This document shows positions 12,371 to 55,856 of a stretch of 64,000 nt of DNA, piece after piece. The notes under the pieces were generated by a model that was given only the letters and a program-made list of their open reading frames with translations, was not told the DNA's origin and ran no database searches. This DNA is from a virus. The DNA is taken from the IMG/VR virus record IMGVR_UViG_3300033153_001906, positions 32,001 through 96,000 of that record; one strand, written 5' to 3'. The position numbers and the translations under genes were made by a program. Numbering within the stretch: position 1 is the stretch's first letter; every line of letters starts with the position of its first letter.

Positions 12371-13012
12371 CTATTTCCAAACGATTTCCGCTTGTCCTGT
12401 TTTCCGCAAATAGTCATTTATACTACTGAATGGTTTGCTCCCAAAGAATCCTCTATACGCAGAAAGAGGAGATGGGTGCGGCGCTTGTATTATAAGATGT
12501 CTCATGTGGTCAATTTGCGAAACTCGTTCTTGTGCTTTCTTGCCCCACAAGACAAACACCAAATTATTCCTCTTTATACTGAGCATCTTGATTGCTTCAT
12601 CAGTCAGTGCTTCCCAACCCCAGCCCTGATGCGATCCAGCTTTACCTTCTTGGACTGTTAGTGTGTTATTTATAAGCAAGACACCCTGGTCTGCCCAATC
12701 ACGTAAACTGCCGCAAGTTCGTTTTATGCCAAGATCGCTTTCCAATTCAGTATAAATGTTCTTGAGCGATTTTGGCAATGGTTCCACACATGCGTTAACT
12801 GAAAATGCTAAACCATTAGCATGACCAGCAGTAGGATAAGGATCTTGTCCAAGTATGACAACTTTCACATCATCAAATGGCAGCAAGTCAAATGCTCGCA
12901 TAATTTGATGTATTGGTGGAAAGATTGGTATGCCAGCATTGATAGACTCTGCAAGCTTATCCGCCACGATCTTGTCCCCACCTTTAAAAAATTCTAAATC
13001 AGTCCAGTTCAA
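12371..13012 (-). CDS. ung: Uracil-DNA glycosylase, family 1
   Basis: VVILGQDPY, GLAFSV, HPSPLSAYRGF. Confidence 0.95.
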   Translation of the reverse strand: MNWTDLEFFKGGDKIVADKLAESINAGIPIFPPIHQIMRAFDLLPFDDVKVVILGQDPYPTAGHANGLAFSVNACVEPLPKSLKNIYTELESDLGIKRTCGSLRDWADQGVLLINNTLTVQEGKAGSHQGWGWEALTDEAIKMLSIKRNNLVFVLWGKKAQERVSQIDHMRHLIIQAPHPSPLSAYRGFFGSKPFSSINDYLRKTGQAEIVWK

Positions 13013-13293
13013 TTTTTTAATCTCGCTGTAAATATTCTTTTGTTTGTCAATCTCATTACACCCAACAATGTTATGTTGGGGTTTTTGAAAACAGTTGCTT
13101 CAGTTTCGTGATATAAACTCAGTGCTTCCTCAGCAGTATTGTAAAGTAATGCATCACCCAAACGCGGACTATATGTAAATTGTAAATAAGAGCCAGCATC
13201 ATCGCTATAAAACGGATGAATTTTACATGGATAAGCAAAGGCATGACTTGTATTATCGCTACCCCTTGTTATGAATTTTAATGTATACTTCAT
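13009..13293 (-). CDS. Small hypothetical protein with C-terminal KxxFxxRLK motif
   Basis: Ends KRIFTARLKN. Confidence 0.65.
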   Translation of the reverse strand: MKYTLKFITRGSDNTSHAFAYPCKIHPFYSDDAGSYLQFTYSPRLGDALLYNTAEEALSLYHETEATVFKNPNITLLGVMRLTNKRIFTARLKN

Positions 13294-13541
13294 ACGCCCG
13301 CCAGTTTTGCTTTAAATATATCTACGTCAGCGATTGGTACTGCTGAGTAGTCTGACACTTGCCACATTGAATCCAGTACGTGTTGCATTACTTTTGGCTC
13401 ATGCTCAAATACGTGTGCTTCTGACAGTAAATATGTACCCTCTGGTGCATCATTGTGTCCAATGCTTTTGAAAAATGATATATCGAACCCATTTTTCTTT
13501 GCTTCGTTATCTCTGCTTGGTGTTATGAGTACATACTTCAT
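13290..13541 (-). CDS. Small hypothetical protein with C-terminal FxxKL motif
   Basis: Ends DIFKAKLAGV. Confidence 0.65.
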   Translation of the reverse strand: MKYVLITPSRDNEAKKNGFDISFFKSIGHNDAPEGTYLLSEAHVFEHEPKVMQHVLDSMWQVSDYSAVPIADVDIFKAKLAGV

Positions 13542-13891
13542 CCGAAGTAGTATCTCAACAATCCGATTATCACTATAAACCCAACGACACCATTTACTAC
13601 CATTAATGCACGATCACGCCAAACGAATGATACCCACCACCATAAAGCTGCGCCTACCAAACTGCCCCATAGATCAATAAGATGTAATGATTCAATTCCT
13701 GTTGCTCTAGCTGATACCGAAAACACGATAACACCTGTAGCAAGCCATTTTACGTACCAATCTAGTGTGTACTTTGGTGTTGCACTCTTAACAATACGAT
13801 CACTTTGGCAAATCTCTGGTTCATCATCTGGATGCTCAGGACTAACACTTGCGTCATATGGTTTTGGTAATTTCCATTTAAAGATTTTCAT
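13538..13891 (-). CDS. Three-TM membrane protein (DUF6552/PnuC-like)
   Basis: DWYVKWLAT..WWWVSFVWRDRALMVVN. Confidence 0.6.
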   Translation of the reverse strand: MKIFKWKLPKPYDASVSPEHPDDEPEICQSDRIVKSATPKYTLDWYVKWLATGVIVFSVSARATGIESLHLIDLWGSLVGAALWWWVSFVWRDRALMVVNGVVGFIVIIGLLRYYFG

Positions 13892-14036
13892 TATACGTTT
13901 TCTTTGCTTTTTCTACAATTATTTTGTGAAGTAATTTATTAGCTTTTTTGCTATCGCCATCGACAAGATACTCTAAGACTTGCGCCAAATCATCTTTGTA
14001 TTTCTTCTTATTTTTTTCTTGATCTAAGTATCTCAT
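13878..14036 (-). CDS. 52 aa helical protein missed by ORF track
   Basis: MRYLDQEKNKKKYKDDLAQVLEYLVDGDSKKANKLLHKIIVEKAKKTYNENL; fills the gap with overlaps at both ends. Confidence 0.6.
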   Translation of the reverse strand: MRYLDQEKNKKKYKDDLAQVLEYLVDGDSKKANKLLHKIIVEKAKKTYNENL

Positions 14037-14236
14037 ATGTCCTTTAATCTAGCCTCAAATAATTCTTTCTTTGTAACTGAAACGATTTCATAACCATCAA
14101 CCTCACTTACAAAATATCGCATATCATGTATCGTCGCTTCACTCAATCTACTGGTCATGTGTGGTATATTGTCACGATGGTATCTATACTCACCATTTCC
14201 TGGATGCACAAAACGATGAACCCACTTAACAATCAT
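14033..14236 (-). CDS. Small hypothetical protein with C-terminal KxxFxxRLK motif
   Basis: Ends KELFEARLKDI. Confidence 0.6.
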   Translation of the reverse strand: MIVKWVHRFVHPGNGEYRYHRDNIPHMTSRLSEATIHDMRYFVSEVDGYEIVSVTKKELFEARLKDI

Positions 14237-14237
14237 G

Positions 14238-14366
14238 TTAGCCCCATATTGCAATCATGCCGATCACTATGCCGAATACGATTGCCCAAAAAATTGTCCC
14301 TAAAAGATTTAATGTAAAATCTTCTGGTACAGTTTTGTTATACCAATCATTAAGTCGCTTCCACAT
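14238..14366 (-). CDS. 42 aa single-TM protein
   Basis: MWKRLNDWY..LLGTIFWAIVFGIVIGMIAIWG; fills gap. Confidence 0.5.
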   Translation of the reverse strand: MWKRLNDWYNKTVPEDFTLNLLGTIFWAIVFGIVIGMIAIWG

Positions 14367-15661: not shown

Positions 15662-15985
15662 TTATCGTAGTAGCCGTTCAGAATCAGGTTTTTCGTCAGA
15701 AACCAAAAGAACGGAATCTATGTCAATGCCCCACAACGTAAGTGTTGCATCGCCATCACGAATTTCCATGCCGCGTGTCCAGCGACCATGCTCAACATAA
15801 ATCCAATTGCCTTCCTGAATTTCCCCCGTTACATCGTCGCCCTTGGAATAAACCTGCATCCAACGTGGACGAACGCCTTCTTCTCTAGCATTGTCATCTA
15901 GTAACACAATGCCGCCACGCGATGTTTCTTCGCCGCGTTCAATTTCTGATGCAAGCAACTTGTCATTTAGTGCTTTAACTTTCAT
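15662..15985 (-). CDS. groES: Co-chaperonin GroES-like
   Basis: MKVKALNDKLL..EETSRGGIVL..VYSKG. Confidence 0.8.
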   Translation of the reverse strand: MKVKALNDKLLASEIERGEETSRGGIVLLDDNAREEGVRPRWMQVYSKGDDVTGEIQEGNWIYVEHGRWTRGMEIRDGDATLTLWGIDIDSVLLVSDEKPDSERLLR

Positions 15986-16248
15986 TACTCTTCCTCTTTA
16001 AAGTACTTTAATGGAATTTCTTTGAGTCCAGCTAGTACTTTCTTGATTGTCCCTTTTGGGAGTTTTGTGTGATCGTGTAATAGTATAACTATTGTGTTGT
16101 GTCTCAATCCAGAGCTTTCCATACGTTCGACCATTTCCTGCATCTTGTACAGATCGTCACGCATGAGTACGATAGATTCGAATTTCTCAAACGTTCCGTC
16201 AAGTCGCTTGACAAACGCTTCTTTACTTTCTAATTCATCTTGGGTCAT
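15985..16248 (-). CDS. Small hypothetical protein with N-terminal KxxFxxRL motif
   Basis: KEAFVKRLDG. Confidence 0.65.
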   Translation of the reverse strand: MTQDELESKEAFVKRLDGTFEKFESIVLMRDDLYKMQEMVERMESSGLRHNTIVILLHDHTKLPKGTIKKVLAGLKEIPLKYFKEEE

Positions 16249-17239: not shown

Positions 17240-18230
17240 AGGTCAAATACTATTATATCGGCTTCTTGGCCGTTTGTCAAGTATTCTTTTCCAATCTCCG
17301 CCAATGGATCGTCTTCGAACCATAATGTTAATTCTTCTCCATCCATGCCTTCCCTGCTGAATTCACTTACATCTATGGTTGGTCGTTCCCACCAGGGCTT
17401 ATCATGCACGGGAGACTCATATATGCCAATGTATTCAATTCCAGGAAGTGGGTATTTTTGTGCTGGATGAAGGTTTCTATAATTCCGTACTATATTTTCG
17501 GTATCTGTTGCTGATAGTGATATTGAATAAATATCGAGCAAATCTTTTGTGATAGCAGATAGCTTTGCGTGTAACACAACAGACAGCATTGAATCATCTG
17601 GCTGTCCTGGGATGAACATTACAGTGTTTGATGTATCGTCCACAACTGTTTCTAGTAGCTGTGAACCCACATCAATTAGAATAACATCACTTAGGACTGC
17701 TTCCATCCAAAGCTTGGCTCGTTGAAACCCAATTGCTGCGCGTTTTCCGCGTTCTTCAAGCGGCATAGCGTCCTTATCAACAGGCCCACATGCAACGTTT
17801 AGCGTGACAGTCGATGCTGATATTTTAGAACTGTCATCTTCTAGATAAATTCTATTTGCAGAGAATACGTGTGGTATGGTAATAAATGATTCGTGATCGT
17901 CTGTAGGAAATTCCATTATAAATCCCTGTGTTGCTTTACAATTACTTCTGCGCTCTTATTCTCCACTTCATCATAGTCCTTAACCTCACCTTCAATTTTT
18001 CCGATTTCAATTATTCCATCTGGATTCTTGGCAACTTCCATATCGTGCATACGTCTGAACATGCGTTCTTCTAGTTCGGCTTGATATACTATTAGCGCAG
18101 CGCGGGCACTATCAACCATGTGAGTATGCCCCCAATGCGTTTCTTGATACACGATAGTCGTGCATTTTTTAATCTTCTCTTGCAACTCATCGTCAGTGAG
18201 TTCAGTAGCGTCTATGAACGGATGATCCAT
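17218..18230 (-). CDS. Two hypothetical genes (17218..17916, 17916..18230)
   Basis: Coupled ORFs. Confidence 0.7.
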
Positions 18231-18231
18231 C

Positions 18232-18729
18232 TTATGTTAGCAAGACTTCTAGCTTGTCCTTAATAGCCTCTTTGATTTCTGTGCCTTTTGGTGCAGAATC
18301 GTCAGCATTGATTAGTGTTGTAGTGGTCGTGCCTGTTGTAAAACCAGTACAGCTACCACCTAGCGTTGTGCTAGAACCACCTGTTAGCGTAATGCTAGTT
18401 CCTGACGATGTAGTTGTATTAGGTACTGTGTATGTTCCACCAGTAGTATACGTAGGTTGATGAATCCACTGAGGTGAACTTGTGGTTTGAGTCCAATCGC
18501 TATCAGTTTGCGTGAAGTGGTTTGGCTGTTCTAGCTGTGAAACTCTGCGTTGTAGCGAGTCGATGGTTTCCATCATTTTTGTAAATGGGCCTTCTTCCAT
18601 TTCATCGTCTGAAATGTTAAGGCGGACAAGAAACATGAATTTCTTGAGTGCTTTTGTGATTTTTGGATCATCGCTTGCACATGCAGCGTCTAAAAGTGTG
18701 ATAAATTGATTAAATTCGTCGTCAGTCAT
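18232..18729 (-). CDS. Hypothetical protein with Thr/Gly/Ser-rich linker
   Basis: GGAG SD; GCTAAATA at 18757..18764 upstream. Confidence 0.7.
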   Translation of the reverse strand: MTDDEFNQFITLLDAACASDDPKITKALKKFMFLVRLNISDDEMEEGPFTKMMETIDSLQRRVSQLEQPNHFTQTDSDWTQTTSSPQWIHQPTYTTGGTYTVPNTTTSSGTSITLTGGSSTTLGGSCTGFTTGTTTTTLINADDSAPKGTEIKEAIKDKLEVLLT

Positions 18730-18784: not shown

Positions 18785-21700
18785 TTATTTCTCTGGATAT
18801 GCGTGTCGCATTTTCCCGACTTCCGCTTTTAGCGACGATGCATACAGGTGTGCAACTTCTCTATCATAGAATGTTGCGCTGAACGTGGACATTTCGTTGG
18901 GACACACGCCACAAGAGAATACGTCCCACGGCTCTAGTCCCTTTTTCCACTCAGTATGCCCCTGTAAATAGAAAAATGGCCGTTCATTGGCATCAATTTT
19001 TGGTACACTTTCACTGTCAACTGGTCGGAATTCAAGTTGAGTGTTGAGTCCACGCCAAGCTGTCACTATCGTTGGGCAATCGAGATGCTTGAGTCTAACA
19101 TTATATATTTTTCCATGTGCGCCTGCTTCAACATTTAGGTTTACTACCCAAACGTCGCGCAATCGCTCTCTTAGATCAGTGATTTGTTCAGGATATATGA
19201 CGCGGCGAGGCCAATCTGATTCGCCTTGATGAATTAGTTTGATTTTTGCTGCGTCAGATGGGTGTATGTCGGGGCCAGTCTGGACACGTAGGGGTTCTTC
19301 TGTTTCAAAGAGGGCAGCATTTTTAACAGCAGCAATGCTACCAATTGCTTCTTCTCGTTTCTTGTATAAGCGATTTATTTCTGGATCAGTTGTTAGCTTC
19401 CGCTTAAACGCATATCGTTTAGTAAACGTCTTACCCAATTTCCTCAAAATCTTCGTCCTCTGGTGCTACTTCCTGGATGTCATAGCGATCCATGATGTCT
19501 TTTATGCGACTCACAAGTGCAACATCACCCTCATATGAGCCAGTTGCGTAAAACATTTTCGCAAGGTCAGGAACCACATCATTCGGATCTGATGCAGGTG
19601 CAAGTTTTAGTAAGAACTTTATATCGTCCTTTACGTCTTCGAGGATATCTTTTGCCACGTTACTTCCTTAATTGTTTGTTGTTGCTAACCAATTTTCAAA
19701 TTCTGTTCTACCAGATTGCGTAAGAGACATTGTTACTATCTCCCCACCCTTTAACTTTCGTACTTCGTTATCTACGAATACTGAAAAACTATTAAAAGGT
19801 CGCAAGCAAAGCATATCACGTTGATGTCCGATGTATTCCAAATAACCTTCTTCGATTAATTCTTGTATCGTGTAAAAGTCACTATAGAACACAGTTTGTA
19901 GTACTTCACTTTTTCGTGAATCAGTAATAACTATTGCTGAATTTGTCCTCATTAAAAACTGTAATTCTGTTATACGGTCATTATCCATTATTATTTTCCG
20001 TTACATTCATAATTTATTTAGTATCTTCAAGCAAAAGTTGTATCAAAACAGATACACTACGCTGTGTTTTTCTCCTTGCATTGCCATAACCAATGCGAAA
20101 TTCTCTATTAACATCTTCTTTTATATACTCAACAGGGTCAGGATTCATGCTAACCTCGCCACCAAATACCGCAGCACCAGCTACAGTGCCAATTGCATCA
20201 GGGATGCTGTTTGCTACATTCTGAGTGCTTGCGCAACCAGTAAGTGCAATCAATGTTAAAATTATAACATAATTCTTCATTCTATGCAACCTTCATTATG
20301 TCTGCAATCACGATTACTTCACATTTTCTACGAAGTATTTTCCTGATTTTGCAAATATGTTCCATGCCATCATCAATTACTATAAACTCTAAGCCAACAC
20401 CCAAGATGAATAAGCTTTTGCATGTTTCGCTATTATCATCAAAGTCTTTGTGATAGCCGCGTGTTCGTTGCTTGTATGCGTTTGGTGTGCTACGCTTGCC
20501 CCACCATTTAATAGTCGAACAACGGTTAAGCCAATGTAAGCTAATGTGAAATTCAGTTGGCTCAACACCCTTCTTCACGTTTCGTGGCGGAGTCGGCCAA
20601 ACGTATCCTAGCATTCCTGATTTATATTCAACTGTTATCATCTTTAATTTCTACTATTTTCACGTTAGGTCTTGCTGTTCGTATTGCTTCAATCAATTCT
20701 TCTGGTGTTTCTCGCGCCAATGGACTTGCTGTACCAATCTTCTCTGCTCTACCATTGCATATCACAACACCGATGCCCGTTGTCAATAGCGTTCCATCGT
20801 TCTTGACAAAGCGCCAGCCGTCTGTGAATTTTCTGGCAGTATAAACGCCATTGTATCCATCGCCACTTGCGCTAACTCTCATCGACTACTTCCCAGCGGC
20901 CCAATCGTTTATCATGCCAATCATCTTTTCATTCAATTTGTGTGTATCATCAACTGCGTCGATGTTGAAGAAAATATTTGCGCCGAAGTGCCCGTTGTAA
21001 TCAACACGCGATACACCATCTAATACTTCCAATCGCGCACAGAGAGTTTCTTCCCACGTATCACATTCATCGTCACGCTTCTCTATTGCTAGATAATCTT
21101 TATCTTCAATTTCGTAGCAGTACGAGCGCATTGTTACGTTCAAGTCACCGATAGCCATTATCGTACCTTCGCATCAAAACGAATATCGTCAGAGCGAATC
21201 CACTCGTCCATTTCTGCAAAACCAGACTGGTAGACACCACCAATGCCGTGTCCTACCATGTGTTCAGTTCCCATGACTACATGCGGACGTATAATCGCAT
21301 CTGCTAATACCATCGTATGTGTTGCTTGTCCATCGTGCGCCCTGAACAGTTCTTTACCATTCGGATGCTTGAATTGAAAGACACCAGCAAACGTATCGTC
21401 GCCTTTGACGCATTGTGCAATTAAATTCAATGGAATCTTAACTGCATCTTTTCCCATCAGCATTTTCGTGTACATTTCTTCGTCCATTAATCCGTTCATT
21501 GTTAGCTCCCAAAACCCAAGTGAAGTTTATTTCCCTTCTTGTCTGCGCATTCAAGAAAGATGTGATGATCGTCACCACTGACATGAATGGCGGTATTCGC
21601 AAAGACTGCCAACTCTAGCCACGTTGGGTCAGTGATTGGATCGCTTTCGTATCTATTGTCTCCCCAACCACCATCGTATGCTATAGTGAATGTGCCCTTG

Positions 21701-23469
21701 TATGGAACTTCATCAAGGTTGTTAATTGGCATACCAACATCATCTGTTTCGTATGCAGAATAAGTGACTATGTGCGTATAAGATTCTTTTAACGCATTGA
21801 CGAATCGCTCTTTCTGTGTTCGACCAGGCTTAGTGATTGCTTTTTCGATTTGCGCTTCCATCTGATCGCAAATTTCGAAGTACACTTCATCATCATATTC
21901 TTCATGTATCATTTTCTACTTCCTTTTTCTTGCGTTTGTACATAGGCCCATTCGGGGTAAGTTCATAGTTCGGACACTCAATTTCAACGTGTTCGATTAT
22001 TTGTGGCAAGTCAAAATTGACTGTCATTGAACGCCAAACCTTCATGCCAAGTGTTGCACCTCGCCGAAACTTCCGCGAAGTTCTAATATCGTGTCTTGGT
22101 ACTTCTGTAAATGCAACTGTCTTCACTCTGTTTCATCTCCGTCTTTAAGTCTGCGAACAAACTTATCTTTTATGTTTTCTTTTACTGCCAAACTGTACTG
22201 TGCGAGTCTATACGCTCTCCAATTAGCCCTCCAGAAAAGGTTGTGTTCACTGTTACCAACCCATTTATCGGTAACAGGATCGAATATCTCGACTAGCCAG
22301 TTATGCAAGCATTCTTCGCGTAATGGTCTGACTCTCGTCCTCATTTGCATTCCTCTACTGTGAAGTGGAACGGGCAATCTTCCTCTTCATCGAAATTATT
22401 CGCTTGAATTTTACGATACAATATTATTTGTATATCGCCACACTTGATCTTATCAGTAAATGATCGCTTCGGCGTTATTTCCATCGTTTCAAGACGGTCT
22501 AACAGATCCTGCCATCCCATCATAACGCAGAGCGTTAGTAAATCTTTGCGTTTCCAAATTTCTTGTACTACCCCAAATTCTTCTTCTGGTCGCACACCAT
22601 ATTTTGAGTTTTTATCCTTCACAATATACTTCCAAAATCGAAGCGCGAACAGTAATCACCGTCGAGCCACCAAGCATACGCACAGCGGCCATATCATTCT
22701 TCATGCGTAGAACAATGCCAGTGCGAAGCGGCAAATACTCGGAAATGTAATCGAGATTGAAATGAACTATGTCGCCAACTTTCATTCTACGCCCATCGCC
22801 CTTAACTGATCTAAGTACGCTTTGTCAAATGTTAATGTCTTTGGAATGTCTGTCTTGCCACACTTGCAAGTACACCAGCAATTCCAAGTTTCCGTATTCT
22901 TGTCCTCTGAAACCTTCTTAACGCGCTCATCCGCAGTACACTTGTCTGCAAGATGTACACACGTAAATATGCTCTTTATCAGCATCTTGAGTGCGCGCAA
23001 TGTTTTCATATACGCATACCCAATGTACGTGCAAATCGTTTCTTTACACTAGTGCGCGCTGCATCTGCAATTGGATATATTCTTTCTGCAAGAAAATTGG
23101 TGAAAGTTCTTGCGTCGTGACCATACTGTTCTTTGTCAATAGACTTGCCAAGAAAAAACACTACGTCTGCAATGTATGTATCCTCTGAATACATATCAAG
23201 AGATTCATTGTCGTATTTCGCAAGAACCTCATTGAGTCTGCCAAGTGCAGCGCGTGTATCGAATTCTTCACTCATTATCCGCTGCTCTTGTTTGCATCGC
23301 CCAGCGTCTTGTCTGCAAGGTTCTTGTTCACGTAGTCACGATATGCCACAAAGAAGTATACCCAAATTGCAACTTCTGTATAACTGTAGAGGCCCCAACC
23401 AATAACTCCAAAGTAGCCAAGTGCCATCAACCAATCAAACGCAGTCATTGGATTAGAATAAAATCTCAT
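18785..23469 (-). CDS. Run of about 16 small hypothetical genes (18785..19447, 19431..19658, 19668..19988, 20014..20289 lipoprotein-like, 20282..20641, 20628..20882, 20886..21158, 21158..21499, 21502..21912, 21902..22126, 22123..22377, 22341..22622, 22612..22785, 22782..23009, 23006..23275, 23275..23469)
   Basis: Head-to-tail overlapping ORFs; LTGC lipobox in 20014..20289; KDKFVRRLKDG and KRSFTDKIKCG motifs. Confidence 0.6.
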
Positions 23470-23975
23470 TCGCTTCCCTCCACTACGGCGGCCAGTGGAT
23501 GATCTGGCAGGAGCCAGAGGGTTCCATTGATTCCATTCGGGTTGTCTGAATCTTCACCAACTGAAAACTCTTGATCGAAAATGGTCATGAGGGTGTGTTC
23601 ATCGCCACCAGCTAAGCCTGCGCCAATGAACGGGAAATGAACTTCTCTGCTTTCGATCATACCAGATGATGCCAAGTGTTTAGCACCACGACAGGCCTGC
23701 TCAACTGCATTGTAATCAACTTGAACAACGTCAGTTCCAAAAAATTCTTGTGTGATTGCATTTACGACTACGATATTGCGCTCGACAATGACGGGGATCA
23801 CTTCGCCAAGAATATAATTCGGCGCTTGGTCATGGTACTGTTCATAAGCAATCGGATATTTATCACGAATGATCTTCGCAACACCTGATCCCATTACGCC
23901 TTGAGCATTGCATCCATGCATGATGTAACCATCTGTGACTTCTGCAAACAAATCGCCAACTTTGACGTTATACAT
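23466..23975 (-). CDS. Macro domain ADP-ribose hydrolase
   Basis: GDLF..HGCNAQGVMGSGVA..FPFIGAGLAGG. Confidence 0.9.
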   Translation of the reverse strand: MYNVKVGDLFAEVTDGYIMHGCNAQGVMGSGVAKIIRDKYPIAYEQYHDQAPNYILGEVIPVIVERNIVVVNAITQEFFGTDVVQVDYNAVEQACRGAKHLASSGMIESREVHFPFIGAGLAGGDEHTLMTIFDQEFSVGEDSDNPNGINGTLWLLPDHPLAAVVEGSE

Positions 23976-24331
23976 TATAATTTCTCCAATGCAATTTCGT
24001 TCAACTGCTTGGCATACTTCGCCAAACGCGGGTAACCATTTTTGGCTGGCTTAGTCCACTTGGCAATCTGCCAATCAAGCAAGCGATTGTCACGCGCAAA
24101 CGTCTTTGCAGTAAGAGTTCCACTTCGCGCATCTGCGCCACTGAAACCCACGCCATTATTTTCGCGTGTGTCATTTGCACGTACTTCATCGTCTGTCTGA
24201 CGTTGCAGCAATGCGACTAGCGCACGACCAACAACAACTTCGACGTAACGAGCATTAGGATTACGCAACATCGTGCGAATCGTATCTCGCGTAACGAGTT
24301 TGCGTTGTCTCTTTGAATTGATAACTGTCAT
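23975..24331 (-). CDS. Conserved phage protein
   Basis: RQTDDE..NGVGFSGADA. Confidence 0.7.
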   Translation of the reverse strand: MTVINSKRQRKLVTRDTIRTMLRNPNARYVEVVVGRALVALLQRQTDDEVRANDTRENNGVGFSGADARSGTLTAKTFARDNRLLDWQIAKWTKPAKNGYPRLAKYAKQLNEIALEKL

Positions 24332-24684: not shown

Positions 24685-24715
24685 GTATGAGTCACTTTTC
24701 TCAGTCTATAGTAAT

Positions 24716-24744
24716 ATTATACGGTAGAATGAGGAGAAAGTCAA
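24716..24744 (-). promoter_or_regulatory. Sigma70-type promoter
   Basis: TTGACT-N17-TATAAT. Confidence 0.8.
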
Positions 24745-24761
24745 ATCTAAATCTCTTTACA

Positions 24762-24824: not shown

Positions 24825-24835
24825 TTATTTAGGTT

Positions 24836-27267
24836 TTACCACCCTTCGTCGCTGAATGTACGCCTATGCCCAATTGTCGCGCTACCATCGTCGGAGAATG
24901 CGTCCCCGTCAGCGACACGAACATAAAATACTGTATTTGAATCCCACACCTTTCTGGTTTCTGTTTCGGGAAACTTCAACTTTAGTTTGAATATATCTTT
25001 TTGACTACGTGTGCCAATAATCCATTTTGGACTGCTACGCTCCATGCATGTGCCATATGCAAATGTTGCGGACATGCTTGCGCACAAGTACATACGCAAT
25101 GCATTATCTGGTTCCATTGGGACTTCTACATTATTGATGATTCTTGGTTTATGACCAGGTATACACAACTTAACGAATTCTATTTCTTCCACAGATTGTT
25201 TCTGTGGTTGCCGAAAATCCCAACTATGCATCGGCTTGTCAAGCAATAAGAAACTAAAGCCATCGCCCCCGCTTATGTGTACATCAGAATGTAATGCAGT
25301 CCAGTCAGTCATACTTTTAGTTTCACTTTAAATAGATGCTTTTCAATATTCGCATCGGGTTCGTTTACTGTAATCATCACTTCGACACCATTTGGATACT
25401 TCTTTCTGTAGAAGCTGGGTGCATTACCCAAGGTCACTGTCCTGCCGTCGTCATATGATTCGTAGTTTTTTAATACTTTCTGTAAATTCTTTACACCCTC
25501 ACCCTTGATTTTCCAATTACCATATCCAAATTTTGTGTTAAACACAGAAGTAAGTGTACGAAATTGAGTAAAGCCAGTTAGAGTAAACTTACATGATGAT
25601 GTTTCACCATCATATTTTGGCACAGTCGGTAGCTTCGGCACCAGGATTATGTCGATCTCATTTAACTTGTCGTATATGTCGATTTTAGCTTTATCCAATA
25701 TGTGTTTGTTGCCACGCACCACACCAATATATTGTTTATCTCCCGACCTACTCTTGGGAATATTTGTGTTAAATTTACCATTTGATTCTATGTGTTTGGA
25801 TGTTAAACTCATCGCGTCACTGGAATCCCAACGGCGAAGAACCCGCGTATCAACATTAATTTCTCTAACCAAGTCGCTAACTCGTTTATATTCGTTTTGG
25901 GTTCTGTAATGAAATGAAATCTTCATAGTAGCTTTCCGCAACACATGCATTCACGAGGATCATCGCGGTTTGGATTTTTATCGCCATAATGGTACAAATA
26001 AACATGCTTTGAAACTGGTGATTCCTCACATGGCTTATCATTGTGTGAAATATAATCTTCTACTTCTAGTGTAGTCCAACAATGCATCTTGTCTGATAGT
26101 TTGGGTTTAAGTATTTTAATTAACAATTCGTTGGTTTGGTCTAGTCCTTCCCGATATTGTTTATAGTGTTCCCTGTATGTGTCATACATTTCTTGCGGGT
26201 CTTCACCATATTTTAGCCGCGCCTTGAACGCCACAAGTTGGGCCTTGCTTGCTTTTGGCTCTTTATCAGTCCAGCGTTTAAATAAACCCATTTGTATCAT
26301 TGTCCTTTATCTTGTCTACGAATACTTGTTTCTTGCGCCTTTTGAATGCGATTGTTCTGATGGTGAAGAATGGTAGTCCCAAAAATAATACAGCAGGCCA
26401 TAGTATAGACCCAACTGCTCCAATAAACCAAACTGCGGCCAGTACAATTAGCACAGGCCACCATGCCAAGAAAGTCAAATCTGTATCTTGTTTTCCAGCC
26501 TCTTTTACCTGCCCGATCTTCAAAGCTACATCAAGTCTGTTTTTAAATAGTTTTGTGTCTTTCTCAACTGTCCAGAATGCAAACTGTCCGTGTGTGACGT
26601 ATAGATGATAGTTAAATTTTAGTGAAGCTTGAATTCCGCCCACAGTGAGAATCAATGCCACTATTCCACACGCAGCAAGACAGCCTATCGCTCCCCATGC
26701 CCAAATCTGAAACAAGATTCCTTCTGCTACTGGTTCAGGCACTGGCGGGCCAGAGTATTGTACACCATCAACTTCATACCCGAATGCCAATACTGGAATC
26801 CATAGCATGACTATGATTAAGAAAACCCATTGCGCATTGATGCGTTTCATTTAGTATCCATATTTTAATTTGAGTTTGAATGCGCTTTTATCGTCCACGC
26901 GATAGACTGTTGGGCTATCTACGCTGGCTGCGATGCCAAATCCTTTCAATGCTACACAGACTTTTCCAGTGCTGCATTCGTGAGATTGGCTCCATGAAAT
27001 TAATTCAGCATTGCCATCGTAAATCAGGAAGCAGAATTGTCCAAACGGCACTGGCAGTCCATCAATGACAAGCAAATCATCGCGCACACTATAGAATCCT
27101 TCATCGTCCAGTTGTGAACGATCTACAATAAATGTGTTGGATTTGTGGTCTGCGTATAACAGAGGACATTGTTCATCAATATGAATTGACAAGGTGCGAT
27201 CATCGTCCATAACGTCGATTGTCGTATAAGCAGACGTATTAAGACATAAATTAGGAAAAGAGGCCAT
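24836..27267 (-). CDS. Five hypothetical genes, each with the FxxKLK motif (24836..25312, 25309..25950, 25923..26300, 26278..26850 membrane, 26851..27267)
   Basis: KDIFKLKLK, KHLFKVKLK, AFKARLKYG, KQVFVDKIK, KSAFKLKLKYG. Confidence 0.7.
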
Positions 27268-27293: not shown

Positions 27294-27322
27294 ATTATAC
27301 TACATGGTCAGGCGCGTGTCAA
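27294..27322 (-). promoter_or_regulatory. Sigma70-type promoter
   Basis: TTGACA-N17-TATAAT. Confidence 0.8.
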
Positions 27323-45184: not shown

Positions 45185-45484
45185 TTATTCCTCTTCTTCT
45201 ATTGAGACATTCAGTGGGAAGCCTTCTTGTCTCGCTGTGTTTATGCAGACATTCATTTTGTTCTCTGCAAGTTCGTGTGTGTATACGCCAACGATTGCGG
45301 CGTTTTTCTCATGTACTTCCATTGTGATCGCTGTTGCTTGCTCCTCAGTCTTATGAAAGATTTGCAATAACAGAAAAATGACAAATTCCATTGTGGTTTT
45401 GTTATCGTTGTGGAAAATCACGCGCCAAAGATTTGGCTCTTTGATTTCAATTTCTTCTTTAACTTGTTCTTCAATTTCAGACAT
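45185..45484 (-). CDS. clpS: Clp protease adaptor ClpS
   Basis: WRVIFHNDNKTTMEFV..MEVHEK..GVY..FPL. Confidence 0.92.
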   Translation of the reverse strand: MSEIEEQVKEEIEIKEPNLWRVIFHNDNKTTMEFVIFLLLQIFHKTEEQATAITMEVHEKNAAIVGVYTHELAENKMNVCINTARQEGFPLNVSIEEEE

Positions 45485-45550: not shown

Positions 45551-45970
45551 TTACTTAATTTCTATCTGTTTTGGCTTTTTAGCTTCTGGAATTTCCTGTT
45601 TTAGCAGAATTGTGAGAATTCCATCGCTGAATTCAGCACTATCAATCTCCCAATACTCAGCTAAACTGAATTGCTTCGTGAAACTACGTGATGCAATACC
45701 CTGATGAACATAAATTTTATCTTCATCTACTGCTGGTTCTCCACTAACAGTCAATACATCATCTTCTACTGTAATATCAACATCATCCCGCTGGAATCCA
45801 GCAAGCGCAAATTCGATACTACGAGTATCGTCGCCTGTAATGATAATGTTATGTGGTGGATAGTTGTTTGATTGTAAGCTTGATAGGTGATCTACGATGC
45901 GATCAAAGCCTATGAATTGGCGATTAAAAATATCTGCCGAAGTGATACGTGCTAGTTCTTTGGTGTTCAT
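45551..45970 (-). CDS. Small heat-shock protein Hsp20 (IbpA-like)
   Basis: IGFDR, NYPPHNI, ALAGF, HQGIASRSF, DGILTI. Confidence 0.95.
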   Translation of the reverse strand: MNTKELARITSADIFNRQFIGFDRIVDHLSSLQSNNYPPHNIIITGDDTRSIEFALAGFQRDDVDITVEDDVLTVSGEPAVDEDKIYVHQGIASRSFTKQFSLAEYWEIDSAEFSDGILTILLKQEIPEAKKPKQIEIK

Positions 45971-48079: not shown

Positions 48080-48382
48080 TTAGTAAAGTCTTTTCCGTTT
48101 TGTAATGTCACCTTCACGACGCTTTTCTTCTCTCTTTACTGCGATTGCTCTTTTTCGTTTCCGAATTATCGAAGGCTTCTCGTAGTACTCGCGTTCGCGC
48201 AGGTCTCTCAATAGGCGGGAGTCTTGCACTTTTTTATTAAAAATGCGGAGGGCTTTTGTAAATGAACGATCATCGTCACCTTGAATCGTTACTTTTAATC
48301 CAGGACATACTGTACGTACATCAAATTCTGGCTTCTTACTGTAGTTATTATGCTTGTTTCTTGGCTTATTATTTCTGTTCAT
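48080..48382 (-). CDS. rpsU: Ribosomal protein bS21
   Basis: KALRIFNKKV..LREREYYEKPSIIRKRK. Confidence 0.88.
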   Translation of the reverse strand: MNRNNKPRNKHNNYSKKPEFDVRTVCPGLKVTIQGDDDRSFTKALRIFNKKVQDSRLLRDLREREYYEKPSIIRKRKRAIAVKREEKRREGDITKRKRLY

Positions 48383-49562
48383 TAATTTTACTCTTAGTGT
48401 ATACTACGTGTGGTTTTCCTACTTTGTTAATGATTATTTGTGTTGCTCCCTTCGATCTAAGGTGTGGCAACTCAAACTGCGTACGGAGCAAGGCTTTTTC
48501 CATTAGGTTTTGTAATCCTCTTGCTCCTGTTTTTTGCTTAGACGCTTGTTCTGCTATAGTCTCCAAAAATTCTTCTTCAAATAATAGTTCAACACCGTCA
48601 AGCGAAAATAAACTCTTATATTGATCCACCAAACAATCTTTTGGTTCTGTCAATATTCGTACTAATGATTCTGTTGTTAGTTCTGATAATGGAACTACAC
48701 TTGGGAACCGTCCTACAAATTCAGGAATCATTCCATATTCAATTAGATCCTCTGATGTAGTAGTCAATAATAACTCAAGTGCGGGTGGTTTGTCAACCTT
48801 TGATATAAATCCGATGCCTGTTGCATTTCGATCACTCCTCAATATAATCTTGTCAAGGCCCACAAATGCGCCCGCCGCGATGAACAGAATGTTGGTCGTA
48901 TCGAACTCACTACCGTTGGAAAGCTTGACTTGTGACCCCTCAACCAGTTTTAATAATGCTTGCTGTACGCCCTCACCAGACACATCTCTGTTGGTTGATG
49001 GTGATGAAATTTCCCTGCTTTTTTTATCTATCTCATCAATGTAAATAATGCCTTGTTGCGCAAGTTCAATGTCGCCATCCGCTTTTTCTAGCAAACGATC
49101 AACCATGCTGTCTACATCTTCGCCTACGTAGCCTGCCGATGTTAATGTGGTTGCATCTGCATGTACAAATGGTAATTTCAAAAGATTTGCAATCGTACTG
49201 ACCAATAATGTTTTGCCAGTTCCACTTGGGCCTATGAGCAATACATTAGATTTTTTGAGTGTTGTTTCTCCGACTACTGGATTATTGATACGCTTATTGT
49301 GATTATAAAGTGCTACTGCTAGTGCCTCTTTTGCACTACCCTGTTCTATCACATACGTATCTAAGTAGTGTTTGATTTCATGCGGGGTTGGTGTATCTGA
49401 ACTTGGCTGGCGCAATGTCTTTGTGCTGACTGCGCGATAGCCAACTTCTATACATTCTTCACAAATATAGACTGTTTCTTCGCCCTTGTCTGGGCCTGCA
49501 ATTATTTTCTTAACATCATTTCTAGTATTGGGACAAAAACTACATTTGATTGTATCAGTCAT
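48369..49562 (-). CDS. clpX: ClpX ATPase
   Basis: CSFC zinc domain, KSNVLLIGPSGTGKT, GYVGEDV, RDVSGEGVQQALLK, IGF, TGARGL. Confidence 0.97.
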   Translation of the reverse strand: MTDTIKCSFCPNTRNDVKKIIAGPDKGEETVYICEECIEVGYRAVSTKTLRQPSSDTPTPHEIKHYLDTYVIEQGSAKEALAVALYNHNKRINNPVVGETTLKKSNVLLIGPSGTGKTLLVSTIANLLKLPFVHADATTLTSAGYVGEDVDSMVDRLLEKADGDIELAQQGIIYIDEIDKKSREISSPSTNRDVSGEGVQQALLKLVEGSQVKLSNGSEFDTTNILFIAAGAFVGLDKIILRSDRNATGIGFISKVDKPPALELLLTTTSEDLIEYGMIPEFVGRFPSVVPLSELTTESLVRILTEPKDCLVDQYKSLFSLDGVELLFEEEFLETIAEQASKQKTGARGLQNLMEKALLRTQFELPHLRSKGATQIIINKVGKPHVVYTKSKINEQK

Positions 49563-50615: not shown

Positions 50616-50963
50616 TTAGTCATCATTCAGCAGCGAGCCGTCCAACTTGCCCTTAAATACTTGCTTTTTAGTGATTGTTGTAAACTTCAAATCGTGTGGG
50701 CCGACAATGATTGTCGTGCCTGGAATTGCTTCTACAAAGCGTTCTTTAATTCTATCGAGATATTGAAGAAACTTGTTTGGTGGCATTCCCATGTTGTTTT
50801 CTACATAGATATACAACGCATCATTATCACCCACTTCAACGTGTGTGCTACAAACACTTTGCGCGCTTTTGTAGTCGGGGTGGTTAACATCTGGCTCTGG
50901 TACAATCCCCGAAAAAATATCCTGAGCGAAATGGTTAACTCCACTTGGCGGACCCACGCTCAT
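50616..50963 (-). CDS. Hypothetical protein with KxxFxxKL motif
   Basis: KQVFKGKLDG near C-terminus. Confidence 0.65.
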   Translation of the reverse strand: MSVGPPSGVNHFAQDIFSGIVPEPDVNHPDYKSAQSVCSTHVEVGDNDALYIYVENNMGMPPNKFLQYLDRIKERFVEAIPGTTIIVGPHDLKFTTITKKQVFKGKLDGSLLNDD

Positions 50964-52154: not shown

Positions 52155-52831
52155 TTGTAATCCCTCGCAAGTGCCATAAATTCTGCGCGTGTCGCTGGAT
52201 CACCTTTGAATCCACCGCCTAGTTTGCTGGTTATTGTGCTTGAACCAGTATCTTCAATTCCTCTGCTCTTGACACAGAAATGATCTGCGTCAATTACTAC
52301 TGCAACCTGTTCTGTTTTAAGTATGTAACAGAGTGCATGATAAATCTGTGCTGTTAATCTTTCTTGTACTTGTGGTCTACGCGCAAAATATTCTGCTACG
52401 CGATTAAGCTTCGATAGACCAATAACTTTCCCATTTGGGATATAGCCAATTGTCGCTTTGCCCACGATGCCAACAAAATGATGCTCACATACAGACATGA
52501 TATTGATGTTCTTTTCGACCAGCATTTCATCGTAATTGAATTCATTCTCTACGACTGTGATCTTGGGGAAGTTTTCTATTCGTAATCCATAGAATGTTTC
52601 ATCCACATACATCTTTGCTACTCGCTTCGGCGTATCTTGTAAGCTATCGTTTTCAAGGTCAAGACCAAGAACAGTCATGGTTGATTGCACATTCTTTCCA
52701 ATCAACTCAACCATTAGGTCTTCGTTCATTGCTTCCCTTGCTGCAAATGGCGTTTCCACGCCCAACTCAAGTAAGTGTTCGTGAATCTCTTGCCCAAGTA
52801 CTGCGTCTGTTTTATTTTTATTAAGCGCCAT
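52151..52831 (-). CDS. folE: GTP cyclohydrolase I
   Basis: DTPKRVAKMY, CEHHF, GLSKLNR, RPQVQERLT, HFCVKSRG. Confidence 0.96.
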   Translation of the reverse strand: MALNKNKTDAVLGQEIHEHLLELGVETPFAAREAMNEDLMVELIGKNVQSTMTVLGLDLENDSLQDTPKRVAKMYVDETFYGLRIENFPKITVVENEFNYDEMLVEKNINIMSVCEHHFVGIVGKATIGYIPNGKVIGLSKLNRVAEYFARRPQVQERLTAQIYHALCYILKTEQVAVVIDADHFCVKSRGIEDTGSSTITSKLGGGFKGDPATRAEFMALARDYK

Positions 52832-53683
52832 TTTCGTTTTGATTCCAACTGTAGTATTGTGATCGGGTTTGGATGCCTTGAAGACTTTGCATCGCTTCCA
52901 TTTTCTCTGATGCAGTATGCGCCATTGCAGCTTTGCTCATTATGCGTGACATTTCTGTTATATCACTTATTGCACGTTGCATATCCATTTGGCTGCGAGT
53001 AAACTCGCGCTCCATTGTAGCCATTTTCTCAATCAACTGTTTCAACGGCCCAGGCTTGCCATTATACGTGCCCTCCAACTTTTTGATGAATTTAAGCTTT
53101 GAAAATTCATCTTTAAGATCGCCCTCGTCTGATATATTCTGTAAGATAGCATCAAACAGATCAATAAGTTCAGGATCAAAATCAAACCCTTGTTTTTCGT
53201 ATTGGTTCATTAGTATTTGCTCTTGAAATTCGTAATGAAGTTATCAACTGCGCTCTGGTCAATATTAATGGCATAGTTCTGTCCCAATGGATCAGGATTC
53301 GCTATTGCTATAAATGCGTTTGCTACGCCACGCATATCAGTGTTGTAGTTGTTTACTTTTGTTTCCAATTCTGTGATTCTAACCTCTGCGTCGATTGATT
53401 TACTTCGTTCAGTAGAAAGGTCTATCTGTAGATCGTGAATACATTTCTGCTGGTCTTCAACAAAAGCCAATAAACTTTCAACAAACTTCTTAGAATCTTC
53501 ACCCTTTAATTTCTGGTGGAAATCAATCTTTTTGGATAAGTCTTTGAATAAGCCATTTTCGACGCCTTGAATTACAAAGTCGATCTTCTCTATTGTTGCT
53601 TCGCTTGGCTTCTCAATATAGTATTGAACTGGTGCGCCGCCTGTTCCTGAATTCATTGTTTTTCTGCCTCTGTCTCTGCCCAT
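52821..53683 (-). CDS. Two coiled-coil hypothetical genes (52821..53210, 53210..53683)
   Basis: KLKFIKKLEG and KIDFHQKLKG motifs. Confidence 0.7.
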
Positions 53684-53822: not shown

Positions 53823-54698
53823 TTATACAGCCATTTTTGGCTTGTTCTTAATGTCTGGTTCTGCGACATAATTTGTCAGTGATACATCATTATACTCTAA
53901 TTCTAATAGATCGTCAAGTTTATTTAGGTCTTTTAGAATTTCTAATTGAGGAAGTGGATGTGGTGTACGCTCTAGTTGCTCATTCACCATATCAAATTGA
54001 TTCTTGTATATGTGAACGTCGTTACCAGTGTACGAAAGAATTCCTGGTTTATATCCCAAAAGTTTTGCAAGAGCCATATTTAGGAATGCGTAATTCATAA
54101 TATTGTATGGTAGACCAAATGGAACATCATTACTGCGCATCATAAAATTAGAGTTTAACCTTCCATCTGGCGTGACCTGATATTGTTGTAATATATGACA
54201 GGGCGGTAACGCGCATTTTTCTATTTGTTGTGGATTCCATGCGCTTATGATATGTCTTCGGCTGAACGGATCGTTTTTGATTTGTTCTATCATCTGCACT
54301 AACTGGTCGATTCCTGTGTAGTGCCAGTCTTCGGGACTGTCTGCTGTGTCCCAGCCGCCAAAGTTTCGCCATTGGTGGCCGTACCCATAGCCCATATCGC
54401 CCTCTTCTAGCCAATCTAAACCTCTTGCGTCCAGAAATTCTCTTGTTGTATTTCCTGTCCATATGTGTATATTCTTTTCTTCTAGTTCTTTCGTTTGTCT
54501 GCCACCACGTAGCATAAACATGGTTTCTTCGAATGAAATACGAAACGCTACTTTGCGCGTAGTAATGATTGGGAATCCCTCTTCTAAATTCCAATGTAAC
54601 ATTCTGCCCCAAACTGAGCGTGAACCAATGCCAGTTCGATCATCTTTGTCGAACCCATTGTCCATTATATCTTGTAGTAAATCTAAGTAATTTTTCAT
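53823..54698 (-). CDS. thyA: Thymidylate synthase
   Basis: DRTG, YGHQWR, SRRHIISAWNP, LPPCH, RSND, HIYKN. Confidence 0.97.
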   Translation of the reverse strand: MKNYLDLLQDIMDNGFDKDDRTGIGSRSVWGRMLHWNLEEGFPIITTRKVAFRISFEETMFMLRGGRQTKELEEKNIHIWTGNTTREFLDARGLDWLEEGDMGYGYGHQWRNFGGWDTADSPEDWHYTGIDQLVQMIEQIKNDPFSRRHIISAWNPQQIEKCALPPCHILQQYQVTPDGRLNSNFMMRSNDVPFGLPYNIMNYAFLNMALAKLLGYKPGILSYTGNDVHIYKNQFDMVNEQLERTPHPLPQLEILKDLNKLDDLLELEYNDVSLTNYVAEPDIKNKPKMAV

Positions 54699-54699
54699 T

Positions 54700-55390
54700 T
54701 TAGTCGTCTAGTGCCCCTTCGCCCATCTTACCCATTACCTTCATCATTCGCCGCCTGGGTTTAGGTGTGGTTTTGCCCCGTTTAAGCCGATACTGAAAAA
54801 CCTCTTTTCGCAAGCTATTATTTTCTTCTTCTAATTCAATAACTCTAGTTTTCAGTTTTCGAATCTTATTGGCTTTTCGTTTTCTCAAAAATTTCATTAG
54901 TGCGGCCCAGGATCATTGGTTCTATTATTGTCACCATGCTTTAAACGATTAGTAAATTTCCGTTTCTTGGCGTCCCGCGTCAGTTTCTTTTGGATAGTTT
55001 TCCAATCAACCCAGCTTGGAACTTTTTTCCATTTAACTATTTTGGAAGCCATTCTAAACACCCATTTTCATCTATGATACGAATATCTTTTTCTTGCTCT
55101 TGTGCAATGTCCCACTGTAAAGATAGATATTCTTCCAATTCGTGATTTGTGAGTGATATGGGGCCGTTAGCAGAATTCCCCCACATTTGCCACTTATCGC
55201 CGAGTTTCATTATTTGGTGCATTTCTTCTGTTGCTGTATTGCAAATGGTGAATGTCACGCCACTCGCAACTCTCAATACTTTAACGCGAAGTTTTCCTTT
55301 TAACCTGTCAACAAATTTCTGCTTTGCATCTGGATCAGGAACCATAGATGGTTTGATAATTTCTGTAGTTGGTTGAGAAAATCGTGTCAT
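54700..55390 (-). CDS. Three small genes, each with the KxxFxxRLK motif (54700..54897, 54897..55052, 55037..55390)
   Basis: KEVFQYRLKRG, KRKFTNRLKHG, KQKFVDRLKG. Confidence 0.65.
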
Positions 55391-55396
55391 ATAACG

Positions 55397-55425
55397 AGTA
55401 TACAACAAAAAAAGCAGTACGTCAA
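55397..55425 (-). promoter_or_regulatory. Sigma70-type promoter (leaderless) overlapping a terminator
   Basis: TTGACG-N17-TATACT; ATG 6 nt later. Confidence 0.7.
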
Positions 55426-55436
55426 GTACTGCTTTT
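55407..55436 (-). terminator. Intrinsic terminator
   Basis: AAAAGCAGTAC-TTGAC-GTACTGCTTTTTTT. Confidence 0.8.
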
Positions 55437-55457
55437 CCTAAATTTAAATTGTGGGAG

Positions 55458-55856
55458 TTATTCTCCGCTTTTTAGCTTATCGACAAACTCTAGTTTCTTT
55501 AAATGTCGATTTCGAAGATATTGCGCATATTTTGTAATACTATAGACGAGTAATGCGCCAGTTGCTACTATTGGAACCAATCCCCATGCTATAAATAGTG
55601 CAACACCCACTCCTGCAAGAGTAACTGCGTCCATAAGAATCGCCCCTGGGTGTGTCTCATTAAAGAGATTGTATATTCTTCCCTTGGAGTCTTTACTCCA
55701 ACCAAACATTAAATCATTATCGTCGTTGCCCATATTTCCGTTTTTCACGTAATATGGTATTGTGCGAAATAAACGAAATAACAAAACTGGAACAAAAAAC
55801 GCAATCATGGCATATGCGATATACCATGATATGGTGAAATATAGTGCGCCGTCCAT
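55458..55856 (-). CDS. Membrane protein, probable paralog of 26278..26850
   Basis: TM helices; ends KLEFVDKLKSGE. Confidence 0.7.
   Translation of the reverse strand: MDGALYFTISWYIAYAMIAFFVPVLLFRLFRTIPYYVKNGNMGNDDNDLMFGWSKDSKGRIYNLFNETHPGAILMDAVTLAGVGVALFIAWGLVPIVATGALLVYSITKYAQYLRNRHLKKLEFVDKLKSGE

Follow-up and report, generated by a model that had tools for sequence, protein, structure and literature searches.

A recurrent basic Phe-Leu peptide tag on small proteins of an uncultured phage lineage, a candidate docking peptide

The locus and its tagged genes

Here we describe a short peptide tag that recurs on small proteins encoded in a 64,000-nucleotide stretch of viral DNA (the window), corresponding to bases 32001–96000 of the 119,174-base IMG/VR record IMGVR_UViG_3300033153_001906 (the contig). 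CheckV estimates the completeness of this record at 44%, and nearly all genes in the window are oriented on the minus strand. The DNA polymerase is 39–43% identical to those of cultured T4-related jumbo phages, for example Phosso, Atu_ph07 and GAP32. Searching two window stretches against cultured phages by megablast returned no match, i.e. no close cultured relative. Window positions 23466–38600 share synteny with L011, a metagenome contig of 14 kb, at protein identities ranging from 25 to 77%. Scans of IMG/VR with three single window proteins gave no match, and the ESM Atlas gave no usable one.

The tag measures approximately 11–15 residues. It begins with Ser, Thr or Asp at about position –5 from a central Phe (position 0), continues as K-[KE]-x-F-x-x-[KR]-L-K and ends with a Gly at +6 or +7. 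When searched with a profile of the tag, 28 of the 192 open reading frames (ORFs) of the contig score at least 8 bits. Within the window, 22 of 124 minus-strand ORFs reach at least 9 bits and three more lie at 4.0–4.3 bits; the tag alignment consists of the former 22, out of the 25 at 4 bits or more. All carriers are small, with lengths of 54–213 amino acids (aa): the tag is present on 28 of 146 ORFs of up to 220 aa, about one fifth, and on none of the 46 longer ORFs. In 16 of the 28 carriers the tag is C-terminal, with the Phe no more than 20 residues from the end, whereas six carry it near the N-terminus (first third) and six internally.

A first-pass annotation, made by reading the sequence, had listed 23 such peptides. 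All 23 are real and lie in minus-strand ORFs whose low coordinates had been placed correctly (the one at 18785 was re-read), and its counts of Lys at –3 (18 of 23) and Lys after Leu or Ile (16 of 23) are correct. The ORF at 18785 matches the regular expression only and not the profile. One carrier, 18232–18729, was absent from that list. The tags and tag-like stretches of the window are the following:

13012..13056, minus strand: tag, C-terminus of ORF 13009-13293 (94 aa), 12.4 bits
13293..13340, minus strand: weak variant without Lys at –3, C-terminus of ORF 13290-13541 (83 aa), 4.3 bits
14036..14083, minus strand: tag, C-terminus of ORF 14033-14254 (73 aa), 16.4 bits
16180..16239, minus strand: tag near the N-terminus (Phe 12) of ORF 15985-16248 (87 aa), 15.4 bits
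18598..18657, minus strand: tag (Phe 33) in ORF 18232-18729 (165 aa), 10.2 bits
19373..19432, minus strand: tag-like stretch (Arg at –3, Thr at +5; Phe 14) in ORF 18785-19447 (220 aa), regular expression only, below 4 bits
22126..22185, minus strand: tag, C-terminus of ORF 22123-22377 (84 aa), 13.9 bits
22425..22484, minus strand: internal tag (Phe 55) in ORF 22341-22622 (93 aa), 15.2 bits
24956..25015, minus strand: internal tag (Phe 108) in ORF 24836-25312 (158 aa), 12.2 bits, kept in the L011 orthologue
25312..25356, minus strand: tag, C-terminus of ORF 25309-25950 (213 aa), 9.2 bits, the L011 orthologue matching 7 of the 9 tag residues
26193..26252, minus strand: tag near the N-terminus (Phe 25) of ORF 25923-26300 (125 aa), 12.5 bits, kept in L011
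26287..26346, minus strand: tag, C-terminus of ORF 26278-26850 (190 aa), after the last strongly hydrophobic segment, 15.6 bits, maximal 19-residue hydropathy 2.45
26854..26904, minus strand: tag, C-terminus of ORF 26851-27267 (138 aa), 13.9 bits
29793..29852, minus strand: tag 15 residues from the C-terminus of ORF 29781-30068 (95 aa), a paralogue of 30343-30663, 14.5 bits
30355..30414, minus strand: tag 15 residues from the C-terminus of ORF 30343-30663 (106 aa), 14.9 bits
33261..33320, minus strand: internal tag (Phe 66) in ORF 33198-33491 (97 aa), 17.3 bits
34965..35018, minus strand: N-terminal tag (Phe 7) of the left-handed β-helix protein 34569-35018 (149 aa), 13.0 bits
50622..50681, minus strand: tag, C-terminus of ORF 50616-50963 (115 aa), 10.8 bits
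53055..53114, minus strand: tag (Phe 41) in ORF 52821-53210 (129 aa), 10.3 bits
53486..53545, minus strand: internal tag (Phe 55) in ORF 53210-53683 (157 aa), 14.6 bits
54763..54822, minus strand: internal tag (Phe 34) in ORF 54700-54897 (65 aa), 15.5 bits
54921..54980, minus strand: tag (Phe 36 of 54) in ORF 54897-55061, 19.0 bits, the best of the window
55280..55339, minus strand: tag (Phe 32) in ORF 55037-55408 (123 aa), 14.8 bits
55461..55511, minus strand: tag, C-terminus of ORF 55458-55856 (132 aa), which has strongly hydrophobic segments, 11.8 bits, hydropathy 2.29

Two further kinds of protein end touch on the motif. Three contig ORFs, in window coordinates -29346..-29077, -28647..-28276 and -26273..-25875, are helical-looking and end in a longer related motif, Leu-Arg-Glu-x-Tyr-x-Lys-Tyr followed by Phe/Met-x-x-x-Leu-x-(x)-Gly, which looks like a variant of the tag that the profile missed. 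The window ORF 34118-34585 and its orthologues in L007–L017 have an N-terminal hydrophobic segment and another conserved C-terminal end, Arg-Gly-Lys-Glu-Leu-x-Phe-Phe. This end fits the loose regular expression, yet is not the tag.

Enrichment and selection at the peptide level

The tag is enriched over composition-matched shuffles, which upholds the claim of a shared motif. Among 174 minus-strand ORFs of the whole contig, each protein shuffled 500 times, the expression K..F..[KR][LI] was observed 23 times against a mean of 1.57 and a maximum of 6 in the shuffles. The corresponding values for K..F..[KR][LI]K were 15 observed, with a mean of 0.12 and a maximum of 2, while the loose core F..[KR][LI] was found 50 times against a mean of 21.4. 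An iterated 16-column hidden Markov model, run to convergence, yielded 26 matches of at least 6 bits; shuffled proteomes yielded 0.05 each (20 shuffles) and reversed sequences none.

All 28 matches of at least 8 bits fall into the coding frame of the 192 ORFs and none into any other frame. Two further matches were located on the minus strand outside the gene set, one of which is a small ORF that the greedy gene set had dropped. A back-translated pattern of the tag occurs in the 119-kb contig 16 times on the coding strand and twice on the other strand, compared to 1 and 0 for a reversed-pattern control. Underneath the motif, Leu is encoded by five codons and Lys/Arg by eight, and third codon positions carry only 0.04–0.5 bit, the Phe codon excepted. 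This synonymous variation indicates that selection acts on the peptide and not on the DNA. We therefore rejected a DNA-level element (a promoter, a ribosome-binding site, a repeat or a mobile element inside genes), given that synonymous codons vary freely and the other frames lack matches.

Six-frame translations of 104 other phage and metagenome loci (561,709 and 652,751 residues) contained no match of at least 8 bits, and a profile search of 177,635 PDB sequences gave only four at E ≤ 10, which is chance level. The motif had been put forward as one without annotation, and indeed neither a Pfam nor a PHROG family covers it. Scanning ten carriers against Pfam and PHROGs gave no match except for the left-handed β-helix in 34569-35018. 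No published description was found in literature listings and abstracts or in passages of a comparative paper on jumbo phages, PMC7824862. As a concept, address peptides, degrons and encapsulation peptides are known; the motif itself, its breadth (about one fifth of the small ORFs) and the lineage are not known to have been described.

Residue specificity and the putative helix

The tag is specific in its residues. When the other positions are held fixed, position 0 is occupied by Phe in 21 cases (0.42 expected), by Ile in three, by Leu and Met in one each and by Trp or Tyr in none. Position +4 is Leu in 19 cases and Ile in two, and position –3 is Lys in 21 and Arg in one, whereas Lys (11) and Arg (10) share position +3. 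Lys at +5 is found in 16 of 25 tags and replaced in nine. The Gly is located at +6 in eight tags and at +7 in ten. Ser, Thr or Asp is frequent at –5, and Glu at –2 as well as Asp or Glu after the Gly are common. Over 11 tag residues the mean net charge is +2.5, with 3.7 large hydrophobic residues on average. As Phe, Leu and Lys at –3 are not swapped for similar residues, a stereospecific reader is favoured.

The fixed positions –3, 0, +3, +4 and +7 would come to lie on one face of an α-helix, with cap-like residues at both ends. Judging from this spacing, and from a single low-confidence helix in an AlphaFold model (residues 4–10), the tag most likely forms a helix of 2.5–3 turns. The model in question, that of the β-helix protein (12 alignment rows), has a mean predicted local distance difference test (pLDDT) score of 56, with 38–39 for helix residues 4–10. 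The model of the C-terminally tagged 138-aa protein 26851-27267 (15-row alignment) has a mean pLDDT of 44.

Diversity of the carriers

The first-pass annotation had called the carriers unrelated and of different protein kinds, and had seen no full motif in the recognisable enzymes. The tag is indeed found on a left-handed β-helix, on proteins with strongly hydrophobic segments and on small soluble ORFs, and none of 17 scanned proteins with clear Pfam enzyme or chaperone domains bears it. The absence of kinship holds for most carriers, but not for the paralogues 29781-30068 and 30343-30663 or for a five-member family outside the window. With the tags masked, phmmer found one related pair among the 28 carriers (E ≤ 0.01); BLAST relates 29781 to 30343 and, outside the window, a few other pairs. 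The annotation itself had named an alternative, namely that the carriers form one homologous family with the stretch as a helix buried in the core. For most carriers this does not hold, but it applies to one sub-family outside the window. In two carriers with strongly hydrophobic segments, the tag follows the last segment beside a basic stretch, which by the positive-inside rule would place it on the cytoplasmic side.

Conservation, portability and lineage range

Among diverged orthologues, the tag is the part of the protein that is conserved best. Three carriers have homologues in metagenomes, and all three alignments show variation at the x positions and none at the fixed tag positions. In the β-helix carrier 34569-35018, K4, F7, R10, L11 and G14 are invariant in 12 sequences down to 52% identity. 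In 26851-27267 the same is true of K127, F130, L132, K133, L134 and K135 in 15 sequences reaching down to 25% identity (alignment without P0012, which is 99% identical), and in 33198-33491 of K63, Y65, F66, L70 and K71 in nine sequences. Across seven orthologue pairs between the window and L011, the nine tag residues are identical at 38 of 63 positions (60%), compared to 315 of 1007 (31%) elsewhere in the proteins (Fisher p = 6e-6). Decay of the tag is seen as well, in the 324-aa protein 32153-33127, where the basic residues retained by the L011 orthologue are gone.

The clearest sign of portability comes from the β-helix family, which is common in phages. Here all 14 close-lineage orthologues (L005–L018) bear the tag in front of the N-terminal motif that the family conserves, and none of 125 distant homologues (115 distinct sequences) does. 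The tag behaves here as a portable add-on rather than a core helix, and it appears to have been grafted onto the N-terminus of this widespread family only in the present lineage. A search of IMG/VR with the β-helix alignment recovered distant homologues only. On other phage contigs (L100, L099/L074, L020, L053 and L062), the family often forms tandem arrays of 2–8 paralogues, all with an N-terminal Phe-Asp-Phe-Gly-Asp-Gly ... Asn-Pro-Asp-Gly and none with the tag.

We also searched the five cultured jumbo phages that are nearest by DNA polymerase and two other, FtsH-encoding ones (274–490 kb each). The back-translated pattern occurs in them 0–8 times, which is control level. Hence the tag is a trait of the uncultured lineage, where it is seen in this contig and in short metagenome contigs.

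A capsid-like tagged family outside the window

The five related contig members outside the window belong to one tagged family. Its proteins, for example L001:12796-13176, are small and start with a copy of the N-terminal part of a T4-type major capsid protein. When this protein is compared with cultured phages by tblastn, only the capsid-like residues 12–83 match, on gp23/gp24 genes of 191 phages. Among 50 library representatives, 24 cover the C-terminal half and all 24 carry the tag; in the other 26 the likeness is limited to the capsid-like segment, and their C-terminal parts differ. An alignment of 23 sequences shows F117 and L121 to be invariant; it includes 22 of the 50 library rows, namely those that extend into the C-terminal half, with P0034 (an identical fragment) and P0053 removed. 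Searches of IMG/VR with an 8-row alignment of the family, and of genome contigs with a single family protein, gave no match.

Promoters and neighbouring genes

Upstream of tagged genes, three sites resemble σ70-type promoters, each by consensus match only:

27294..27322, minus strand: σ70-type promoter-like site (12/12) in the 51-nucleotide gap directly upstream of the tagged operon 27267-24836
55397..55425, minus strand: σ70-type promoter-like site (10/12) upstream of the tagged operon 55408-54700
56595..56623, minus strand: σ70-type promoter-like site (12/12) upstream of 56562-55458, which includes the tagged ORF 55458-55856

The best σ70-type sites in the scanned regions are almost all on the coding strand, while their total number is not above that in shuffles. 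A T4-type late motif, GATAAATAC, is present in 14 copies on the coding strand and in one on the opposite strand, and precedes genes other than the tagged ones. The σ70-like sites upstream of tagged operons, together with the late word in front of other genes, are suggestive of early expression of the tagged genes. Perfect 12/12 sites with a 17-nucleotide spacer number four on the coding strand (12341-12369, 17252-17280, 27294-27322 and 56595-56623).

Late genes appear to bear a separate N-terminal tag, distinct from the present one, which is on other proteins. The first 16–18 residues of window ORF 39209-39718 and of the contig ORFs -11864..-11592 and 73843..74223 (window coordinates) are common to all three, with 69–78% identity. 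Two adjacent window genes at 37788-39205 (270 and 185 aa, no family match) correspond to one 485-aa ORF in L008:293-1747; the two arrangements differ by a gene split or fusion, unless one of the assemblies contains a frameshift.

The contig further encodes a set of proteostasis genes that is unusually complete for a phage. The window contains FtsH (41996-43786), ClpX with its zinc finger (48369-49562), ClpP (35252-36037), ClpS (45206-45442), Hsp20 (45554-45838) and a further AAA+ protein (10796-11893) whose N-terminal part is very acidic. Just outside the window, at L002:8257-10548 and L002:10569-11375, lie a ClpA-like ATPase and DnaJ. Neither Hsp70 nor an SspB-like adaptor was found in the 119 kb, and scanning the conserved neighbours with PHROGs and Pfam gave no hub candidate. 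We utilised complex prediction to place the tail of 26851-27267 against two copies of the N-terminal 62 residues of ClpX with zinc. The prediction, with a score of 0.02 and a mark of 0.32, speaks neither for nor against binding.

Discussion

Our hypothesis is that the tag, portable and restricted to this lineage, serves for docking and is read by one common partner, a proposal drawn from sequence for which we see about as much chance of being right as of being wrong. In such a scheme, small proteins with no other kinship would carry the peptide at either terminus or in a linker, and its helix face would present Lys-3, Phe0, Lys/Arg+3 and Leu+4. The carriers would probably be early, cytoplasm-facing accessory proteins. 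Their reader would be one macromolecular partner, a protein that combines a Phe/Leu pocket with an acidic rim being the most likely.

Several observations weigh against this hypothesis. Six of the tags are internal. The notion of a single reader is deduced from the pattern of residues. Both AlphaFold models are of low confidence, with pLDDT values of 24–39 in the tag regions, and establish neither a helix nor its exposure. In the capsid-like family, every representative that covers the C-terminal half has the tag-like stretch, which could be a structural helix there. Furthermore, the pattern stays at control level in the seven cultured jumbo phages, at least one of which encodes ClpA and ClpX according to PMC7824862. 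Because cultured jumbo phages with Clp or FtsH genes lack the tag, these machines and the tag do not go together.

Who might read the tag? The phage proteostasis set (FtsH, ClpX, ClpP, ClpS, the ClpA-like ATPase, DnaJ and the further AAA+ protein) is a tentative candidate that we regard as doubtful, and the reader could equally be a host protein. Taken furthest, the tag might constitute a proteome-wide address code, in which about one fifth of the small early proteins bear a helical handle and a phage hub, most plausibly FtsH, ClpXP, ClpAPS, DnaJ or Hsp20, gathers, remodels or clears the host-takeover set together, at a single stage of the infection cycle. We consider such a code possible but rather unlikely.

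A more specific proposal, which is the docking hypothesis with its reader named, is that the tag serves as a degron or tethering handle for the phage AAA+ proteases FtsH, ClpXP and ClpAPS, allowing timed removal or remodelling of early accessory proteins. Although we hold this to be unlikely, several features speak for it. FtsH, ClpX, ClpP, ClpS, the ClpA-like ATPase, DnaJ, Hsp20 and the further AAA+ protein are all encoded on the contig, with ClpP in an operon just upstream of tagged genes. The carriers with hydrophobic segments would expose their tag, next to its basic stretch, to the cytoplasm. There is a precedent in lambda CIII, a phage amphipathic helix that is both a substrate and a competitive inhibitor of FtsH (PMC1838920). 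A part of CIII follows x-x-[KR]-L-[KR]-x-G. However, CIII (NC_001416) scores –1.4 bits with the tag profile, as it has Ile in place of Phe and Leu in place of Lys-3. The six internal tags would defeat a degron that has to engage the pore, whereas a tethering site could work there. The lack of an SspB-like adaptor in the 119 kb and the tagless cultured phages that carry Clp or FtsH genes likewise count against proteases as readers. As a variant, we considered a latent N-degron for the phage ClpS, exposed by cleavage before the Phe. This was rejected, since position –1 is not conserved and cleavage of the 16 C-terminal tags would free a short tail only.

The tag could instead be an amphipathic helix that holds small proteins at the anionic inner membrane, in the manner of MinD or FtsA, which we judge improbable. 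Its basic character (mean net charge +2.5), its C-terminal location in 16 of 28 carriers and its 3.7 large hydrophobic residues, compared to 4 among the 11 C-terminal residues of E. coli MinD, would suit this role, and the E. coli MinD tail even fits the expression K..F..[KR]L. On the other hand, MinD scores –0.2 bits with the tag profile, and the summed Wimley-White interfacial energy averages +3.8 kcal/mol for the tags versus +0.4 for the MinD tail. Glu at –2 and the acidic residues that commonly follow the Gly add to this discrepancy. Helices that bind lipid tolerate exchanges among hydrophobic residues and between Lys and Arg, whereas here Phe does not give way to Leu, Ile, Trp or Tyr, nor Lys-3 to Arg. 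Moreover, the two carriers with strongly hydrophobic segments would already be seated in the membrane.

It is also quite unlikely, in our estimation, that there is no common reader and that the tag is a recurrent capped structural helix packing on its own fold, spread through hidden paralogues or by recombination from an abundant family. This would account for the constancy of the stretch in the five-carrier family outside the window, for the paralogues 29781 and 30343 and for the strand-like hydrophobic run that, by eye, directly precedes the tag in many C-terminal carriers. It is at odds with a tag that occurs at either end or in the middle of β-helix, hydrophobic-segment and helical-looking proteins, which after masking are unrelated except for one pair. 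The distant β-helix homologues fold without it (0 of 125), and a helix packed on its own protein would not fix the solvent-side Lys-3, Lys/Arg+3 and Lys+5 across different folds.

Finally, a nucleic-acid-binding helix or the recognition site of a phage protein-modifying enzyme, to which the basic character of the tag might point, is very improbable: only three basic residues are fixed, and there is no invariant acceptor residue, with Lys and Arg alternating at +3 and Lys+5 replaced in nine of 25 tags.

In large phages, the majority of genes are small ORFs that have neither a known function nor known relatives, and a conserved, residue-specific handle shared by about 20% of them allows their study as a group. 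A single peptide pull-down with the docking peptide proposed here could name the partner and thereby a common fate for dozens of unknown proteins, and metagenomes can be searched for further carriers by means of the tag. Should the reader belong to the phage protease and chaperone set, the presence of such sets in jumbo phages would be explained. In bacteria, proteins could also be targeted, or degraded in a controlled way, with the help of a short portable peptide that has its own reader.

Comparison with known systems

The tag resembles the tails that bind sliding clamps (T4 gp43, gp33 and gp55, PIP-like), which are short, usually terminal peptides with Leu and Phe that bring many clients to one ring. 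However, the DNA polymerase of this phage ends in an acidic tail of the Leu-Phe-Asp-Phe type, whereas the tag is basic. The clamp motif of the phage thus appears to be different from the tag, and we set aside a clamp-binding function on the basis of this polymerase tail.

With the membrane-targeting sequences of MinD and FtsA, the tag shares a basic amphipathic stretch that is often C-terminal. Unlike MinD, the tags partition much less favourably into the interface and are residue-specific. The T4 capsid-targeting sequence is another phage-encoded address peptide on unrelated proteins of one T4-related genome. It is N-terminal, is found on late proteins and is cleaved off by the prohead protease.

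Short peptides common to unrelated substrates or adaptors also serve AAA+ proteases as recognition signals, for example ssrA-type degrons, the SspB tail bound by the zinc-finger domain of ClpX, and the FtsH-binding helix of lambda CIII. FtsH, ClpX, ClpP, ClpS and a ClpA-like ATPase are encoded by the phage together with the tag.

The overall arrangement is reminiscent of the encapsulation peptides of bacterial microcompartments, which also provide a short, probably helical common address at the N-terminus, at the C-terminus or between domains of unrelated proteins. There are clear differences. The BMC shell domain PF00936 is unmatched in the 119-kb contig, which represents about 44% of the genome, while control genomes respond to the same search. 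The cargo differs too, as the tag carriers are small proteins of no known function and not pathway enzymes. Encapsulation peptides share amphipathicity rather than fixed residues. The tag described here, in contrast, fixes Phe, Leu and Lys.

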